Part shown: positions 19,228 to 50,119 of the stretch, piece by piece | Numbering within the stretch: the first letter of the stretch is position 1 | How the letters are laid out: each line of letters begins with the position of its first letter | DNA from: Acutalibacteraceae bacterium | GTDB lineage: Bacteria; Bacillota; Clostridia; Oscillospirales; Acutalibacteraceae | Reading direction: 5' to 3' | DNA length: 64,000 nt | Assembly: GCA_045604945.1 (NCBI GenBank) | Contig: JAZUPA010000076.1 | Span: 2,281-66,280 of the forward strand | Notes under the pieces: model-generated | What the model saw: only the letters and a program-made list of their open reading frames with translations | Told to the model about the DNA's origin: nothing | Database searches by the model: none | Program-made: the position numbers and the translations under genes

Positions 19228-19234
19228 ACAACTA

Positions 19235-19491
19235 ATAACTGTGAAGGGAAGAAGTACCCTGCACTTCATTCTTCAGAGAGCTGACGGTCGGTGCAAGTCA
19301 GCGGATGAGGCAGAGGAAATACATCCCGGAGTTGGGCTTCTGAAATTAACAGTAGGGAGCTTCGTGTGCGCACGTTACAGCGCAGAGTGATGCATGTCAC
19401 TCGCTAAGGCCGATTGCCGTGAGGTATCGGTAAACTGAGGTGGTAACGCGTAATTTTACGCCCTCTGCATATTAAATGCGGAGGGCGTTTT
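19235..19491 (+). promoter_or_regulatory. T-box riboswitch, Tyr specifier (UAC)
   Basis: AGAGA box plus GGUGCAA distal loop. Specifier segment GGAAA-UAC-A-UCCCGGAG (UAC at 19320-19322). T-box AAACUGAGGUGGUAACGCG (19432-19450). Terminator CGCCCTCTGCA...TGCGGAGGGCG plus T4 (19459-19491). Confidence 0.92.
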
Positions 19492-19527: not shown

Positions 19528-20754
19528 ATGGGAGTTTACGACGAACTCAAAGCAAGAGGTCTGATTGCTCAGACAACCCACGAAGACAAAATCCGCGATC
19601 TTCTCAACAACGAAAAGGTAACCTTCTACATCGGATTTGACCCCACAGCAGACAGCCTTCATGTAGGCCATCTTCTGCAGATGATAATCATGAGCCACAT
19701 GCAGAAGGCAGGTCACAGACCTATCGCTGTTATCGGCGGCGGTACAGCAATGGTTGGTGACCCTTCAGGTCGTTCCGATATGCGCTCCATGATGACCAAG
19801 GAAACCATCGCTCACAACGGCAGATGCTTTGTTTCCCAGATGGAGAATGTTGTCGATTTCGGTGAAGGCAAGGCAATGATGCTCAACAACGGCGACTGGC
19901 TCTATGACCTTAACTACATCGATTTCCTCCGTGAAATAGGTGTACACTTCTCTGTCAACAGAATGCTCACCGCTGAGTGCTTCAAGACAAGACTTGAAAA
20001 GGGTCTGTCCTTTATCGAATTCAACTACATGCTGATGCAGAGCTACGATTTCCTTTGCCTTAATCAGAAGTACGGCTGCGTACTTGAGCTTGGCGGCGAT
20101 GACCAGTGGTCCAATATCCTTGGCGGCATCGAGCTTGTAAGACGTGTTGAGGGCAAGGAAGCATATGGTATGACCTTCCAGCTTCTGACCACCAGCGACG
20201 GCAAAAAGATGGGCAAGACCATGGGCGGTGCTGTATGGCTCGACCCGAAGAAGACTTCTCCCTACGATTTCTACCAGTACTGGAGAAACACCGAGGATGC
20301 AAGCGTTATCAAGTGTCTGAAGTTCCTTACCTTCCTGCCTCTTGAAGAGATTGAGAAGATGGAGAGTTGGACTGATAACAAGCTCAACGATGCAAAGGAA
20401 ATCCTTGCTTACGAGGTTACCAAGATCGTTCACGGTGAGGAAGAGGCTGAAAAGGCAAGAGCTGCAGCAAGAGCAATCTTCGGCGGCACAGGCGATGTTG
20501 AGAACATGCCTGCAACTGCTGTTGCTGACAGTGAATTTGTTGACGGCGCAATCGAAGTAACTCAGCTTATGGTACTCTGCGCCCTTGCAAAATCCAAGGG
20601 CGAAGCAAGAAGACTTGTTGAGCAGGGCGGCGTTATGATCGACGGCGAAAAGGTTGCTGATGTAAAGGCGACTGTTTCCAAGGATGCCTTCGAAAAGGGA
20701 CATGTAGTTATCAAGAAGGGCAAGAAGGTCTTCCATAAGGCTACATTAAATTAA
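19528..20754 (+). CDS. tyrS: Tyrosine--tRNA ligase
   Basis: HVGHL (HIGH) and KMGKT (KMSKS) motifs and a C-terminal S4-like domain. Confidence 0.97.
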
Positions 20755-41945: not shown

Positions 41946-42920
41946 ATGAAAATAGAGTACATGAAACAAGCTCCTGAGGTTCTTAAAGGCTATTTTGGCT
42001 ATCTGGAGACCGTTAAAGGAAAATCTGCAAAAACTGTTGAAGAATACTTTCTTGACATCAGAACCTTTTTAAGATATCTGAAAATCTCTCGCGGCGTTAT
42101 TTCTACTGATGCAGAATTCTCAGAAATCGACATCAGTGACATTGACGTTGAGTTTTTATCCCGTGTGACGCTTACAGAAATTTTTATGTTTATGAACTAT
42201 ACAGCTTCAGAGCGTAAAAACGACGCAGCAGCTCGTTCCAGAAAATCTTCAGCTCTGAGATCGCTGTTTGATTATCTGACCAATCGCACAGGTCTTATCA
42301 AGGAAAATCCCACACTGAATCTTGACAACCCAAAACTCAAGTCAGCTCTCCCCAAGTTTCTCAGTCTTGAGCAAAGCCGCAAGCTTCTGGAAGCTATTGA
42401 CGGACCTTATAAAGCCCGTGATTATTGTATCGTAACTTTGTTTCTTAACTGCGGTATGCGTCTTTCCGAGCTCGTCGGAATAAATCTCAGCGACATTCTC
42501 GACGACAGACTGCGAATTACCGGTAAAGGCAATAAACAGCGCATTGTATATCTCAATGATGCCTGTATTGAAGCTATCAGAGATTATCTCAAGGTCAGAC
42601 CTGTTGACTGCGTAAAAGACCGCGATGCACTGTTTATAAGCCGAAATAAGAACCGAATCAGCCCTAAGACAGTACAGTATCTTGTTAAAAAATACCTGTC
42701 GGCAATCGGTCTTGATGAAATGAGCGTGCATAAGCTCAGACACACAGCCGCTACGCTTATGTATCAGCACGGCGGCGTAGATATAAGAATCCTGCAGGAT
42801 ATTCTCGGGCATGAAAATCTCGGCACAACGCAGATTTACACCCATATTTCCGATGAGCAGATGCGCAAAGCTGCCCAGTCAAATCCGCTGTCGGATGTCG
42901 GAAAAAAGAAAAAACAGTAA
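41946..42920 (+). CDS. Xer-family tyrosine recombinase (second copy in this window)
   Basis: 324 aa with ARDYCIVTLFLNCGMRLSEL, HKLRHTAAT and LGHENLGTTQIYTH catalytic motifs. Confidence 0.85.
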   Translation: MKIEYMKQAPEVLKGYFGYLETVKGKSAKTVEEYFLDIRTFLRYLKISRGVISTDAEFSEIDISDIDVEFLSRVTLTEIFMFMNYTASERKNDAAARSRKSSALRSLFDYLTNRTGLIKENPTLNLDNPKLKSALPKFLSLEQSRKLLEAIDGPYKARDYCIVTLFLNCGMRLSELVGINLSDILDDRLRITGKGNKQRIVYLNDACIEAIRDYLKVRPVDCVKDRDALFISRNKNRISPKTVQYLVKKYLSAIGLDEMSVHKLRHTAATLMYQHGGVDIRILQDILGHENLGTTQIYTHISDEQMRKAAQSNPLSDVGKKKKQ

Positions 42921-42922
42921 TA

Positions 42923-42950
42923 AAAAGCCCACTCATAAGAGTGGGCTTTT
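42923..42950. terminator. Bidirectional terminator at the convergence of + and - gene blocks
   Basis: AAAAGCCCACTC-ATAA-GAGTGGGCTTTT. Confidence 0.85.
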
Positions 42951-42955
42951 GAACA

Positions 42956-44617
42956 TTATGCGGTTTCGCCGTTGTCCTCAAGCTCAAAGTGCTTTGCAGC
43001 CTTGTCGCGAAGCTTGAATTTCTGAATCTTGCCGCTGGCGGTAAGCGGGAAACTGTCAACAAACCAGACGTATTTGGGAACCTTGTGGCGAGCCATGCTG
43101 GAGCGCACATAATCCTGGATTTCCTCTTCTGTAACCTCGCAGCCTTCTTTCTTGATAATGCAGGCACAGATTTCCTCGCCGAATACCTTGCTGGGTACAC
43201 CGACGACCTGAACATCACTGACTGCATCGTGACGGTAAAGGAAATCTTCGATTTCTTTAGGATAGATATTCTCACCGCCGCGGATGATCATATCCTTGAT
43301 TCTGCCTGTGATCTTATAATAACCCTCGTCGTCTCTGACGGCAATATCACCGGTGTGGAGCCATCCGTCACGGATTGCCATTGCAGTAGCTTCCTCCATC
43401 TTGTAATAACCCTGCATGACGTGGTATCCGCGGGTTACAAACTCGCCGGGAACGCCATTGGGCAGGTCTTCCCCGGTCTCCGGATCAACAATCTTGTTTT
43501 CGCAGCCCGGCAGGTCACGTCCTACGGTATTTACGCGCTTTTCTATAGAGTCATCGGTTCTGCTCATTGTGCAGCCGGGAGAAGCCTCTGTCTGACCGTA
43601 GGTGATTGTAATATCTCTCATGCCCATCTTCTCAATAACCTGACGCATGGTAACCAGCGGACAGGGCGAGCCTGCCATAATACCTGTACGAAGAGATGAA
43701 AGGTCAACATCCTCAAATTCGGGATGCTCAAGCATGGATATAAACATTGTGGGAACGCCATGGAAAGCGGTGCATTTCTCACTTTCAATGGCTCTCAGGC
43801 ACTTTATCGGGCTGAAAAGGTCAATGGGAACCATGGCAGAAGCGTGAGTGATGCAAGCCATCATTGCAAGAACCATGCCGAAGCAATGGAAGAACGGAAC
43901 GGTTATGCAGAGCTTGTCGTTTTCGGTAAACGCCATACAATCACCGATGAAACGTCCGTTGTTGAGGATGTTCTTGTGGGTCAGCATAACGCCCTTGGGG
44001 AATCCTGTTGTACCGGAAGTGTACTGCATATTTGCAACATCATCAGGTTTGTTGGACTCAAATACCCTGCGGAAATCCTCGTAGGGAGTTTTCTCAGCGC
44101 GGTTATACAGCTCCTTGAAGTTGAGCATGCCTGCAGGAGTATTCTCTCCTGCGAAGAATATATTCTTAAGGAAAGGAAGCTCCGGAACATTAAGCTCATC
44201 GGGATTCTGATCCTTGAGGTCGGGAATGAGCTGATTTACTATTTCAACATAGTCATTCTTCTTCCAGCGGTCAATCATGACGAGGACCTTGGAGTCGGAC
44301 TGACGGAGCAGATACTCAAGCTCAAACACTTTATAAGCAGTATTTACAGTAACAAGTACAGCACCGATTTTAACAGATGCATAGAAGGTAAGCATCCATT
44401 CAGGAACATTAGTAGCCCAGACTGCTACATGGTCGCCCTTTTTGACGCCCATAGCCATAAGTCCGCGAGCGATAACATCAATTTCATCGGAAAATTCCTT
44501 CCAGGTTCTTGAGTAATCGCGATCGGTGTACTTTACAGCCTCACGGTCAGGATACTTTTCAGCAAGCTCTTCGATCTGCTGACCGATGGTTTTGTTCCAT
44601 AATACTAATTCGCTCAT
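42956..44617 (-). CDS. AMP-dependent acyl-CoA synthetase/ligase, YngI/ACSF2-like
   Basis: 553 aa with YTSGTTGFPKGVMLTH, GYGQTE-like YGQTEASP, GWLHTGD, GGENIYP and GKIQK motifs. The ATG at 44617 follows a GGAGGA RBS. Confidence 0.88.
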   Translation of the reverse strand: MSELVLWNKTIGQQIEELAEKYPDREAVKYTDRDYSRTWKEFSDEIDVIARGLMAMGVKKGDHVAVWATNVPEWMLTFYASVKIGAVLVTVNTAYKVFELEYLLRQSDSKVLVMIDRWKKNDYVEIVNQLIPDLKDQNPDELNVPELPFLKNIFFAGENTPAGMLNFKELYNRAEKTPYEDFRRVFESNKPDDVANMQYTSGTTGFPKGVMLTHKNILNNGRFIGDCMAFTENDKLCITVPFFHCFGMVLAMMACITHASAMVPIDLFSPIKCLRAIESEKCTAFHGVPTMFISMLEHPEFEDVDLSSLRTGIMAGSPCPLVTMRQVIEKMGMRDITITYGQTEASPGCTMSRTDDSIEKRVNTVGRDLPGCENKIVDPETGEDLPNGVPGEFVTRGYHVMQGYYKMEEATAMAIRDGWLHTGDIAVRDDEGYYKITGRIKDMIIRGGENIYPKEIEDFLYRHDAVSDVQVVGVPSKVFGEEICACIIKKEGCEVTEEEIQDYVRSSMARHKVPKYVWFVDSFPLTASGKIQKFKLRDKAAKHFELEDNGETA

Positions 44618-44631
44618 TGTAATTCCTCCTG

Positions 44632-44906
44632 AAAAAAAGCCCCTCAATATGCCTGAAGCATATCAAGGGACGTAGAAAACTAATTCTGCGTGGTACCACC
44701 CAAGTTCAGCGGAAAATCCGCCCTCAGAGGTCTCTATCAAGACCCGACCGTTAACGCCGGTCAGACGTCCTGCGCTGAATATCACACAGGCAACTCCGGG
44801 ACGAGTTATCCACACAGCAATTGTATCGGCTCGCACCAGACCGCCGATTCTCTGAAAGCAATAAGTCTGTGTCTTTTTCCCTTCACAGTCTTTAAGAATT
44901 TACATT
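44632..44906 (-). promoter_or_regulatory. T-box riboswitch with a probable Leu (CUC) specifier
   Basis: On the minus strand: AGAGA plus GGUGCGA; GGAUAA-CUC-G-UCCCGGAG (CUC is the complement of 44803-44805); T-box AACUUGGGUGGUACCACGC (44706-44688); UGGUACC bulge; terminator CCCUUGAUAUGC...GCAUAUUGAGGG plus U7 (44669-44632). Confidence 0.88.
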
Positions 44907-44912
44907 GGTAAA

Positions 44913-44941
44913 ATTATATTTTCAAAATCATAAAATGTCAA
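44913..44941 (-). promoter_or_regulatory. Consensus sigma-A promoter of the T-box leader
   Basis: On the minus strand: TTGACA (44941-44936), 17 nt, TATAAT (44918-44913). Confidence 0.7.
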
Positions 44942-45307: not shown

Positions 45308-45898
45308 TCACAAATCCAACTCATAAATTTCGACGCTGTCTGCATCAGCTGCGGCAGCAACAGAACATATGCAATCATCAAAAATTATTGTTCTGAGTTT
45401 GAGGGAGAGCTGATTTCTTGAAATGCAGTTCAGCGGTTCAAGGTTTTCATCGACAAGATTACAGCCGAAAAACCAGTCACTGAACCCCTCCCCTGTTGCC
45501 TTGCATATTGCTTCGCGCAGCGTCCAGAGAATGGTTGCTCTTTCATCGGCGTTTCCGCTATTGATAAATTTTTGCTCGTTATCAGAAAAAAGTCTTTCTT
45601 TTGTGTGAACAGAAAATGTGCGTACAGCTTCTGCATCTACTCCTATTTCACCGTCGGAAACAGCAAGCAAAATTGTATTTTCAGTGTGAGAAATACTTAT
45701 AAACAGCGGAGAATCGACAATATAAGGCTTTCCTTTTTCTGTTTTGCTTATCACTGCATCAATGCCCGTCAGCTCAGTTATCCGTTCTTCAAGCAGCCTG
45801 TATGCGGTTTCTGAAATTAGCCTGTTTTTTTCTGCTTTTGAACTAAGGGCGGCTTTGCAGAGAAAGCCGCCCAGTCTGTACAAATAAAGTTTAATCAT
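45308..45898 (-). CDS. 4'-phosphopantetheinyl transferase, Sfp type
   Basis: GKPY..., ISISHT, IGVDAE and WTLREAICKATGEG motifs. Its ATG overlaps the upstream kinase stop (ATGA). Confidence 0.8.
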   Translation of the reverse strand: MIKLYLYRLGGFLCKAALSSKAEKNRLISETAYRLLEERITELTGIDAVISKTEKGKPYIVDSPLFISISHTENTILLAVSDGEIGVDAEAVRTFSVHTKERLFSDNEQKFINSGNADERATILWTLREAICKATGEGFSDWFFGCNLVDENLEPLNCISRNQLSLKLRTIIFDDCICSVAAAADADSVEIYELDL

Positions 45899-49114: not shown

Positions 49115-50119
49115 TCAAAGTCTGGGAAGTCCAACCTTCTTGTAAACCTTGCGAATAGTGCGCTCTGCAAGGTAAGCTGCCTTCTCAGCGCCTTCCTTTG
49201 CCTTCTGCTCAAGGTAAGCTCTGTCAGTAAGGAATTCCTTGTATCTCTTCTGAATAGGCTCAAGAACAGAGACAACAGCCTCGCCGACTGCAACCTTGAA
49301 GTCACCGTAGCCTTTGCCCTCGAAGTCCTTTTCAATCTGCTCAAAGGTAAGACCTGTGCAGGCAGAATAGATCTCCATAAGGTTATTGATGCCTTCCTTG
49401 CCTTCTCTGTAGCAGACGCATGCTTCGCTGTCTGTAACCGCTGACTTGAACTTCTTCATAATAACATTGGGCTCGTCTACCATAAGTACAAAGCTTCTTG
49501 TATTGGGGTCAGACTTGCTCATCTTCTTTGTGGGGTCTGCAAGGCTCATAACGCGTGCAGCCTGCTTGGGAATAAAGGGCTCAGGCACTGTAAAGGTATT
49601 TCCGTATACACCGTTGAATCGCTCTGCAACGTCTCTTGTGAGCTCCAGGTGCTGTTTCTGGTCAGCGCCGACAGGTACCATATCTGCGTTGAAAAGCAGA
49701 ATATCAGAAGCCATAAGTACAGGATATGTGAAAAGACCTGCATTGACGTTATCGGCATGCTGCTGGGACTTATCCTTGAACTGGGTCATTCTGGAAAGCT
49801 CACCGAACTGGGTGTATGTATTGAGAACCCAGGACAGCTCTGCATGAGCAGGCACCATGCTCTGATGGTAGAATATGCACTTATCGGGATCGACGCCTGC
49901 AGCAAGAAGCAGAGCATAAAGCTGCTCGGTGTTCTTTTTGAGTACCTTCGGGTCCTGACGGACTGTTATTGCGTGAAGGTTTGCAGTAGCATAGATGCAT
50001 TCAAACTCATCCTGCATTGTAATCCAGTTGCGGATAGCACCCAGATAATTTCCTATTGTCATTTCTCCGCTGGGCTGAATAGCAGAGAATATTCGCTTTT
50101 TCTTTTCTGTGTTTTCCAT
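49115..50119 (-). CDS. trpS: Tryptophan--tRNA ligase
   Basis: IFSAIQPSGEMTIGNYLGA (HIGH-like region) and KMSKS motifs. GGAGG RBS. Confidence 0.95.
   Translation of the reverse strand: MENTEKKKRIFSAIQPSGEMTIGNYLGAIRNWITMQDEFECIYATANLHAITVRQDPKVLKKNTEQLYALLLAAGVDPDKCIFYHQSMVPAHAELSWVLNTYTQFGELSRMTQFKDKSQQHADNVNAGLFTYPVLMASDILLFNADMVPVGADQKQHLELTRDVAERFNGVYGNTFTVPEPFIPKQAARVMSLADPTKKMSKSDPNTRSFVLMVDEPNVIMKKFKSAVTDSEACVCYREGKEGINNLMEIYSACTGLTFEQIEKDFEGKGYGDFKVAVGEAVVSVLEPIQKRYKEFLTDRAYLEQKAKEGAEKAAYLAERTIRKVYKKVGLPRL

Follow-up and report, generated by a model that had tools for sequence, protein, structure and literature searches.

A leucine-type T-box before an acyl-CoA synthetase gene points to a candidate activation step from isovalerate to leucine in gut and rumen Clostridia

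Introduction

In Bacillus subtilis and other Firmicutes, leucine T-box leaders control leuS and ilv-leu, i.e., an aminoacyl-tRNA synthetase (aaRS) gene and genes of the isopropylmalate pathway. The targets listed in T-box surveys (PMC2494555, main text and supplements) are genes for aaRS, biosynthesis, and transport as well as some hypothetical proteins; CoA ligases are absent. Here, we analyzed a 64,000-nt stretch of DNA from an Acutalibacteraceae bacterium (assembly GCA_045604945.1, contig JAZUPA010000076.1, positions 2,281 to 66,280 of the forward strand; hereafter “the window”), in which a leucine T-box leader precedes, on the minus strand, a gene for an AMP-forming acyl-CoA synthetase (ACS).

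Branched-chain volatile fatty acids are required or used by the cellulolytic bacteria of the rumen and by many Clostridia of the gut, and these organisms turn them into branched-chain amino acids by carboxylation; for rumen bacteria, such assimilation was reportedly described by Allison and Bryant in the 1960s. To our knowledge, the activating gene of this branched-chain route has never been firmly assigned, and we know of no tRNA-sensing control acting on it. We propose, with a probability of roughly 0.6, that the window ACS is an isovalerate-CoA ligase controlled by a leucine T-box and feeding reductive carboxylation to leucine, a reading in which substrate and pathway direction are deduced from regulation and gene context.

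Results

A complete leucine T-box leader precedes the acyl-CoA synthetase gene

The elements of the leader and the gene behind it are as follows.

44913..44941, minus strand: sigma-70-type promoter, TTGACA-17 nt-TATAAT (12/12 consensus matches)
44663..44895, minus strand: T-box leader with Stem I, Stem II region, Stem III, and antiterminator (RF00230)
44803..44805, minus strand: specifier CUC (Leu), followed by G at 44802 (Rfam and R1 alignments)
44688..44706, minus strand: T-box sequence AACUUGGGUGGUACCACGC with the 7-nt bulge UGGUACC at 44698-44692 (sequence and RF00230)
44667..44701, minus strand: antiterminator helix, 3' strand ACGUCCC (RF00230 structure line and folding)
44632..44671, minus strand: intrinsic terminator of the leader, a 15-bp hairpin (44671-44639) plus U7 (44638-44632)
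44625..44629, minus strand: ribosome-binding site GGAGG, 7 nt 5' of the ATG at 44617 (sequence)
42956..44617, minus strand: ACS gene, 553 aa, AMP-binding (PF00501, 331 bits) and AMP-binding_C (PF13193, 71 bits)

An earlier reading of the window from its letters alone (the sequence-only reading) had identified this leader as a T-box. Rfam model RF00230 bears this out with a full-length match above its gathering score (99.6 bits vs 93, E 9.6e-21, model positions 1-219 of 219), and R1, our covariance model of Stem I, scores 75.9 bits at 44897-44787 (minus strand). The promoter (TTGACA at 44941-44936 and TATAAT at 44918-44913, minus strand, with a 17-nt spacer) lies 18 nt upstream of the Rfam match. 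The base of Stem I carries the GA/K-turn region CUGUGAAGGGAA (44888-44877), followed on the same strand by the AGAGA box (44853-44849) and the distal loop GGUGCGA (44837-44831). Within the 7-nt bulge of the antiterminator fold, UGGU (44698-44695, minus strand) is complementary to the 3' ACCA end of tRNA; bacterial tRNA-Leu has the discriminator A73 and hence an ACCA acceptor end, matching the U of UGGU. Promoter, GA/K-turn region, AGAGA box, GGUGCGA, T-box sequence, and UGGUACC bulge can thus all be read on the minus strand, as the sequence-only reading had said. Its dimensions needed revision: the leader spans ~290 nt between its likely start and the ATG, rather than ~270; the terminator and its U7 are present, with a stem of 15 pairs instead of 12; and the terminator does precede GGAGG, with the U-run ending 2 nt and the stem 9 nt before it, instead of 8 nt. 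The 64-kb window holds no tRNA gene.

The folding energy of the terminator is -21.6 kcal/mol (z = -6.3 vs shuffles). For the antiterminator alone the value is -7.6 kcal/mol and a shuffled sequence does equally well, so that this structure needs stabilizing. Since residues 44671-44667 are common to both, the two folds are mutually exclusive upstream of the ACS open reading frame. A strong default terminator combined with a weak, tRNA-dependent antiterminator is the classical T-box arrangement, and every sequence and structure hallmark of a transcription-attenuating leucine T-box is present in the leader RNA.

The identity of the specifier can be checked against a second T-box in the window.

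19232..19468, plus strand: T-box with UAC specifier (RF00230, 137.5 bits)
19528..20754, plus strand: tyrS gene (TIGR00234, 428 bits vs a cut-off of 114)

The UAC of the tyrS leader occupies the same alignment column as the CUC of the ACS leader. This internal ruler is valid because the gene behind the UAC leader scores above the cut-off of the tyrS equivalog model, and the assignment of CUC as a leucine specifier, originally made by this very comparison, is upheld by the Rfam alignment. Next to CUC-G in that alignment comes the 3' strand of the helix that lies beneath the specifier loop; this flanking helix covaries. In contrast to tyrS, the trpS gene of the window (49115-50119, minus strand; TIGR00233, 350 bits) lacks a T-box that reaches the Rfam gathering score.

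We therefore regard a canonical transcription-attenuating T-box specific for tRNA-Leu (anticodon GAG) as very likely. What is known of the T-box family suggests that the leader would respond to tRNA in the usual manner: at low leucyl-tRNA charging, the anticodon of uncharged tRNA-Leu would pair with CUC in the Stem I specifier loop and its free ACCA end with UGGU in the T-box bulge. This would stabilize the weak antiterminator and block the strong terminator, allowing RNA polymerase to read into the single ACS gene.

The leucine T-box is conserved before the ACS family

We evaluated the conservation of this arrangement across three samples: a genome set of 80 loci from species-representative genomes (ACS 56–66% identical to that of the window), the closer relatives L081, L082, L083, L085, and L088, retrieved by exact protein look-up, and an 80-locus sample of metagenomes, some contigs of which duplicate genome-set contigs (L107, for instance, is the same contig as L020). 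T-boxes were searched for with R1, trained on 12 Rfam-confirmed leaders and the two T-boxes of the window. RNAalifold, applied to the 14 Stem I sequences, introduced two spurious pairs inside the AGAGA box, and a hand-trimmed 12-pair structure was used.

A T-box was found on the coding strand before the ACS gene or its operon at 38/80 genome loci, 34 with a CUC and 4 with a CUG specifier, the latter in leaders with 58–64% GC. The Rfam gathering score was reached by 21 of these 38, and the 12 Rfam alignments inspected show the same triplets. Among the closer relatives, CUC was read in L081 (86% identical), where a PRC-barrel gene lies upstream as in the window, in L082 and L083 (both 76%), and in L085 (68%), while the cultured Gehongia tenuis (L088, GCA_014384795.1) has CUG. 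The metagenome set adds 31 T-boxes (28 CUC, 3 CUG). Overall, ~75 T-boxes precede members of the ACS family (56–86% identical), and all clean ones are of the leucine type (CUC or CUG). The survey of orthologs for Leu, Ile, or Val T-boxes proposed in the sequence-only reading thus returned a conserved leucine specifier before this ACS and no valine specifier among the ~75 clean T-boxes. In GC-rich genomes, CUC gives way to the synonymous CUG, as expected if amino acid identity is what counts.

A shorter motif scan, limited to 700 nt 5' of the tblastn match, had found T-boxes at 16/80 loci, an undercount because at most loci the ACS either carries a fused N-terminal domain of 285 aa or lies behind a further gene. 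We also considered whether R1, trained mostly on CUC leaders, forces this triplet on its matches. This possibility was rejected: the same search returned UAC for the tyrS leader of the window, UGG before an unrelated gene in L019, and AUC at loci encoding MbcS-like ligases, and GUC elsewhere. Since the Tyr, Trp, and Ile controls are read correctly, R1 does not force CUC, and for 13 inspected leaders the Rfam alignments agree with the R1 specifiers. For the three Stem I helices in 43 sequences, 98% of cells were paired and 142 were double-change cells, a result reached by 0/500 shuffles; slid registers collapsed in this test. Given the ~75 loci with a leucine specifier and the covariation of Stem I, the association between the leucine T-box and the ACS is real, old, and under selection.

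The target is an adenylate-forming ligase close to PRK12583

The adenylation motifs YTSGTTGFPKG and GYYKITGRIKD are present in the window ACS and conserved across the family. Domain matches, two covariance models, and the ~75 loci agree with the sequence-only reading in that the target of this T-box is an adenylate-forming acyl-CoA ligase, rather than an aaRS gene, an amino acid biosynthesis gene, or a transporter. A comparison with fatty-acid ligases, also suggested there, succeeded in part: the best NCBIfam model is indeed of this kind (PRK12583, “fatty acid CoA ligase family protein”, matched end-to-end with 760.2 bits, the next model being far behind at 437 bits), but the score stays below the curated cut-off of 832. 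The window ACS is therefore a close relative of the PRK12583 group and not a certified member. Database relatives are 64–86% identical, the named ones belonging to Oscillospiraceae, Ruminococcaceae, Christensenellales, Anaerotruncus, and Gehongia, with annotations that go no further than “AMP-binding protein” or “fatty-acyl-CoA synthase”. The nearest PDB entries (feruloyl-, fatty-acyl-, and malonyl-CoA ligases) match at ~260 bits over two thirds of the protein.

Gene context links the ACS family to leucine formation

The clearest functional clue comes from L075 and L152, where the following order was found on one strand: leucine T-box, a LeuA-like gene, an ACS fused to a TIM barrel, ilvE, a CbiA-like gene, vorB, and the genes of the beta and gamma subunits. 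Here, IlvE and VorB exceed the cut-offs of their models (PRK13357, 478 bits vs 307; PRK07119, 545 bits vs 399), the beta subunit is thiamine pyrophosphate (TPP)-binding, and beta and gamma belong to a 2-oxoacid:ferredoxin oxidoreductase (VOR). Scanning of the L075 operon, from a Ruminococcus sp. metagenome-assembled genome (MAG) of goat caecum, revealed no strong internal intrinsic terminator. Genes of VOR and/or a branched-chain aminotransferase (BCAT) also flank the ACS in L033, L047, L060, L074, L077, L079, L150, and L160. The coupling consists of VorB in L033 and L047, while L150 has a sub-threshold T-box followed by the genes of VorB, its beta and gamma partners, BCAT, and the ACS; the 64 kb of the window show no such coupling. 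Several of the loci with VOR, leuB, or an isoleucine T-box in their context are from Ruminococcus, rumen, or hindgut MAGs. The co-occurrence with branched-chain 2-oxoacid:ferredoxin oxidoreductases that the sequence-only reading had suggested looking for is therefore observed in relatives, as VorB-type genes beside the ACS. In L082, the leucine T-box is followed by the ACS and then directly by leuB (L082:7687-8772; TIGR00169, 490 bits vs 353).

A different setting was found in a delta-proteobacterial MAG (L038:1718-5968), in which the ACS ortholog follows genes for an acyl-CoA carboxylase biotin-carboxylase subunit, similar to the alpha subunit of methylcrotonyl-CoA carboxylase, and for an HMG-CoA lyase (463 bits vs a cut-off of 246). 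This is a liu/yng-like catabolic cluster, presumably comparable to the setting of yngI in the B. subtilis yng cluster, so that the family is tied to the leucine carbon skeleton in another physiological setting too. Other delta-proteobacterial contexts (L037, L046, L066, L080, etc.), whose translations were inspected without a family search, were housekeeping-like, leaving L038 as the only liu-like one. Separately, riboswitches of the tetrahydrofolate, cobalamin, and TPP types occur near ACS loci (L003:11650-11752, L015:11421-11522, L027:7733-7922, and L050:9818-9925) and are probably unrelated neighbors.

These contexts suggest the following pathway. The ACS, as an AMP-forming ligase for short branched-chain acids, would activate exogenous isovalerate to isovaleryl-CoA, which a VorB-type 2-oxoacid:ferredoxin oxidoreductase would reductively carboxylate to 4-methyl-2-oxopentanoate, and IlvE would transaminate the latter to leucine. 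Two considerations favor the biosynthetic direction: AMP-forming ligases favor activation and are effectively irreversible toward it, and co-induction of IlvE and VOR at uncharged tRNA-Leu would be self-defeating in a degradative pathway. Gene context thus makes the isovalerate-CoA ligase hypothesis of the sequence-only reading considerably stronger.

A parallel isoleucine T-box system occurs in relatives

Four loci carry, in addition, a T-box with an isoleucine specifier.

L033:8579-8687, plus strand: isoleucine (AUC) T-box
L047:8783-9034, plus strand: isoleucine (AUC) T-box
L160:10752-10861, plus strand: isoleucine (AUC) T-box
L158:4255-4364, minus strand: isoleucine (AUC) T-box

In L033, L047, and L160 the AUC T-box lies downstream of the leucine-controlled genes, on the plus strand, whereas in L158 it is divergent, upstream of the leucine T-box and on the opposite strand. 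The L047 leader reaches the Rfam gathering score, and its Rfam alignment confirms AUC-A. All precede an HTH-cupin/MbcS-like ACS (best model NF047394, 449 bits). Behind this gene, L033 and L047 encode a CbiA-like ATPase and VorB before the fetched locus ends, and L160 encodes the same two proteins and, after them, the beta and gamma subunits and BCAT; in L158, the MbcS-like ligase alone is found behind the isoleucine T-box (minus strand). As judged from these sequences, the system looks like a 2-methylbutyrate-to-isoleucine counterpart of the leucine system. The substrates of purified Staphylococcus aureus MbcS are 2-methylbutyrate and isobutyrate, isovalerate being a poor one (PMC10026030), which makes a separate enzyme for isovalerate plausible. 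An assimilation route predicts just such a pair of ligases with one VOR and one BCAT in common, in which the T-box before each ligase is specific for the amino acid whose carbon skeleton that ligase would supply.

TIM-barrel, LeuA-like, and Amidohydro_2 proteins recur beside the ACS

Three further proteins recur at these loci. A xylose-isomerase-like TIM barrel (PF01261, ~285 aa) is fused to the N-terminus of the ACS at 45/80 genome loci, with fusions among L019-L079 and in most of L109-L169 (e.g., L060:5200-7656), and a homologous gene lies just downstream of the ACS at ~18 unfused genome loci and in L085, L087, and L088. This fusion is a link of the Rosetta-stone type; the TIM barrel itself had no NCBIfam match and no PDB sequence match. 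A LeuA-like protein (HMGL-like and LeuA_dimer domains) is encoded by the first gene behind the leucine T-box at 12 genome and several metagenome loci, e.g., L033:3721-5133, L060:3785-5200, and L075:3669-5132, and, directly upstream of the ACS, always stands behind such a T-box. Aligned with Escherichia coli LeuA, all members are without Asp14 and His202/His204, the canonical metal ligands, and they keep the C-terminal leucine-binding regulatory domain; a role as pseudo-enzyme or sensor is possible. The third recurrent protein is of the Amidohydro_2 family.

Neighborhood of the ACS gene in the window

Two features delimit the ACS gene at its 3' end.

42923..42950, minus strand: hairpin terminator 3' of the ACS gene, 12-bp stem, common to the ACS and the convergent recombinase gene
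41946..42920, plus strand: Phage_integrase-family (tyrosine-recombinase) gene, convergent

Since the ACS reading frame ends at this hairpin with the convergent recombinase gene, the T-box controls one gene. The neighbors in the window, including RadA, DUF6873, the recombinase, the PRC-barrel protein, an Sfp-type 4'-phosphopantetheinyl transferase, and an FGGY kinase, are uninformative. The transferase gene (45308-45898, minus strand) lies two genes upstream of the ACS and outside the T-box transcription unit, and its link to the adenylate-forming ACS is probably coincidental. A tblastn search of the 64-kb window with the TIM barrel, LeuA-like protein, IlvE, VorB, Amidohydro_2 protein, and CbiA-like protein returned no match, and we assume that the partner enzymes are encoded elsewhere in the genome.

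Discussion

Alternative explanations

Several observations weigh against a leucine T-box-controlled isovalerate-CoA ligase feeding reductive carboxylation. About half of the ACS-family loci are without a T-box, and two sub-threshold leaders depart from the leucine pattern: L140:1346-1612 (81.9 bits), which has lost the K-turn and carries UGAU in the bulge, shows GUC at the specifier position and is probably in decay, and L150:3854-4126 (79.5 bits) has an ambiguous register around UUUCUCCC (CUC, UCC, or UCU). The 64 kb of the window contain no VOR, class-IV BCAT, TIM-barrel, or LeuA-like gene; the solved structures nearest to the ACS are distant, so that its substrate is not readable from structure. 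The true substrate could also be isocaproate, a further acid related to leucine, or isobutyrate, by way of 2-ketoisovalerate and LeuABCD. Finally, the three-enzyme model of ACS, VOR, and IlvE needs none of the TIM-barrel, LeuA-like, and Amidohydro_2 proteins.

These recurrent partners lend most weight to the idea, unlikely in our view though deserving serious attention, that the ACS activates a different leucine-related acid (isobutyrate feeding 2-ketoisovalerate, isocaproate, and 3-methylcrotonate being candidates) or catalyzes a step of an undescribed leucine route, in either case without VOR-dependent carboxylation. The TIM barrel is fused or adjacent to the ACS at most genome loci (45/80 and ~18 more), the LeuA-like gene is found at 12, Amidohydro_2 recurs, and leuB follows the ACS in L082. 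The partners can be understood as a regulator that senses leucine and acts on the ligase, as extra isovaleryl-CoA chemistry, or as the sign of a different substrate, all of which are possible. Somewhat more doubtful is the specific version in which the leucine T-box marks a leucine-forming module of Clostridia made of the LeuA-like, TIM-barrel, ACS, and Amidohydro_2 proteins, or else a leucine-sensing complex on the ligase; such a module could, for example, join isovaleryl-CoA and a C2 unit to 3-isopropylmalate, to be followed by LeuB, and its TIM-barrel enzyme would be metal-dependent and xylose-isomerase-like. However, the window and L081-L083 (76–86% identical) retain the leucine T-box and the ACS but have no TIM-barrel, LeuA-like, or Amidohydro_2 partner, so that the ACS has its own role in relation to leucine. 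The operons combining VOR and IlvE fit carboxylation, and isobutyrate in particular is disfavored by the absence of valine specifiers among the ~75 clean T-boxes.

We consider it improbable that the same activation of branched acids serves to spare leucine, with isovaleryl-CoA as a primer for iso-branched membrane fatty acids. S. aureus MbcS, which scavenges short branched acids for lipid primers (PMC10026030; see also PMC11167679), provides a precedent; a leucine-sparing enzyme would also suit a leucine T-box, and in the window the ACS stands alone, with no VOR or BCAT within 64 kb. Yet the leucine T-box operon of L075 and L152 includes IlvE and VOR subunits, whose induction during leucine starvation helps only if the flux goes to leucine, the pairing of ACS and leuB in L082 is biosynthetic, and no locus has a fab or FabH context. 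Far less credible still is the idea of a CoA ligase for fatty acids in general or for catabolism (YngI/liu-type), without any part in leucine supply, whose T-box is there by chance or in decay. The best family models are named after fatty-acid CoA ligases, L038 is liu-like, and the T-box is missing from about half of the loci, but intact leucine T-boxes stand at ~75 loci in several Clostridia lineages and three gene architectures, the synonymous change from CUC to CUG tracks GC content, and inducing leucine degradation at uncharged tRNA-Leu would be counter-productive.

Significance

Taken together, the T-box and the ACS point to the missing gene for the conversion of isovalerate to leucine in gut and rumen Clostridia, and extend the T-box regulon to a new class of targets, the acid-scavenging CoA ligases. 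Assigning a gene to the activation step, and placing that gene under the control of tRNA-Leu, both appear to be new: a full-text literature search combining T-box and acyl-CoA synthetase returned nothing relevant, although an earlier mention in curated regulon databases is possible, and a search on YngI and the genes of isovalerate reductive carboxylation returned no prior description. The leucine T-box acts as a built-in functional label, through which the old question of the activation step becomes directly testable, and the isoleucine T-box before the MbcS-like ligase carries the same logic to isoleucine. This also provides an annotation rule for hundreds of proteins that, in MAGs from rumen and gut, now have no label beyond “AMP-binding protein” or “long-chain-fatty-acid-CoA ligase”, and it matters for how nitrogen economy is modeled, for the supplementation of ruminants with branched-chain fatty acids, and for gut cross-feeding.

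Comparison with known systems

The proposed route follows the same activate-carboxylate-transaminate logic as the aryl-acid route by which methanogens form aromatic amino acids, which employs an arylacetate-CoA ligase and an indolepyruvate:ferredoxin oxidoreductase. Like MbcS of S. aureus (NF047394), the ACS would be an AMP-forming ligase that scavenges external short branched-chain acids. However, MbcS belongs to a different ANL subfamily and is not among the matches listed for the window ACS (25 of 110 NCBIfam families); it serves lipid primers, and in relatives it is an MbcS-like paralog, not the window ACS family, that sits behind an isoleucine T-box. PRK12583-type ligases, proposed to be the group of B. 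subtilis YngI and human ACSF2, provide the best end-to-end model for the ACS, whereas its regulation points to leucine supply rather than breakdown. With the leucine T-boxes of leuS and ilv-leu, the leader shares the RF00230 architecture, the CUC specifier, the UGGN bulge, and the terminator/antiterminator logic. The leader RNA is thus an ordinary member of RF00230, and the unusual part is its target, an AMP-forming acyl-CoA synthetase in place of an aaRS or an isopropylmalate-pathway gene.

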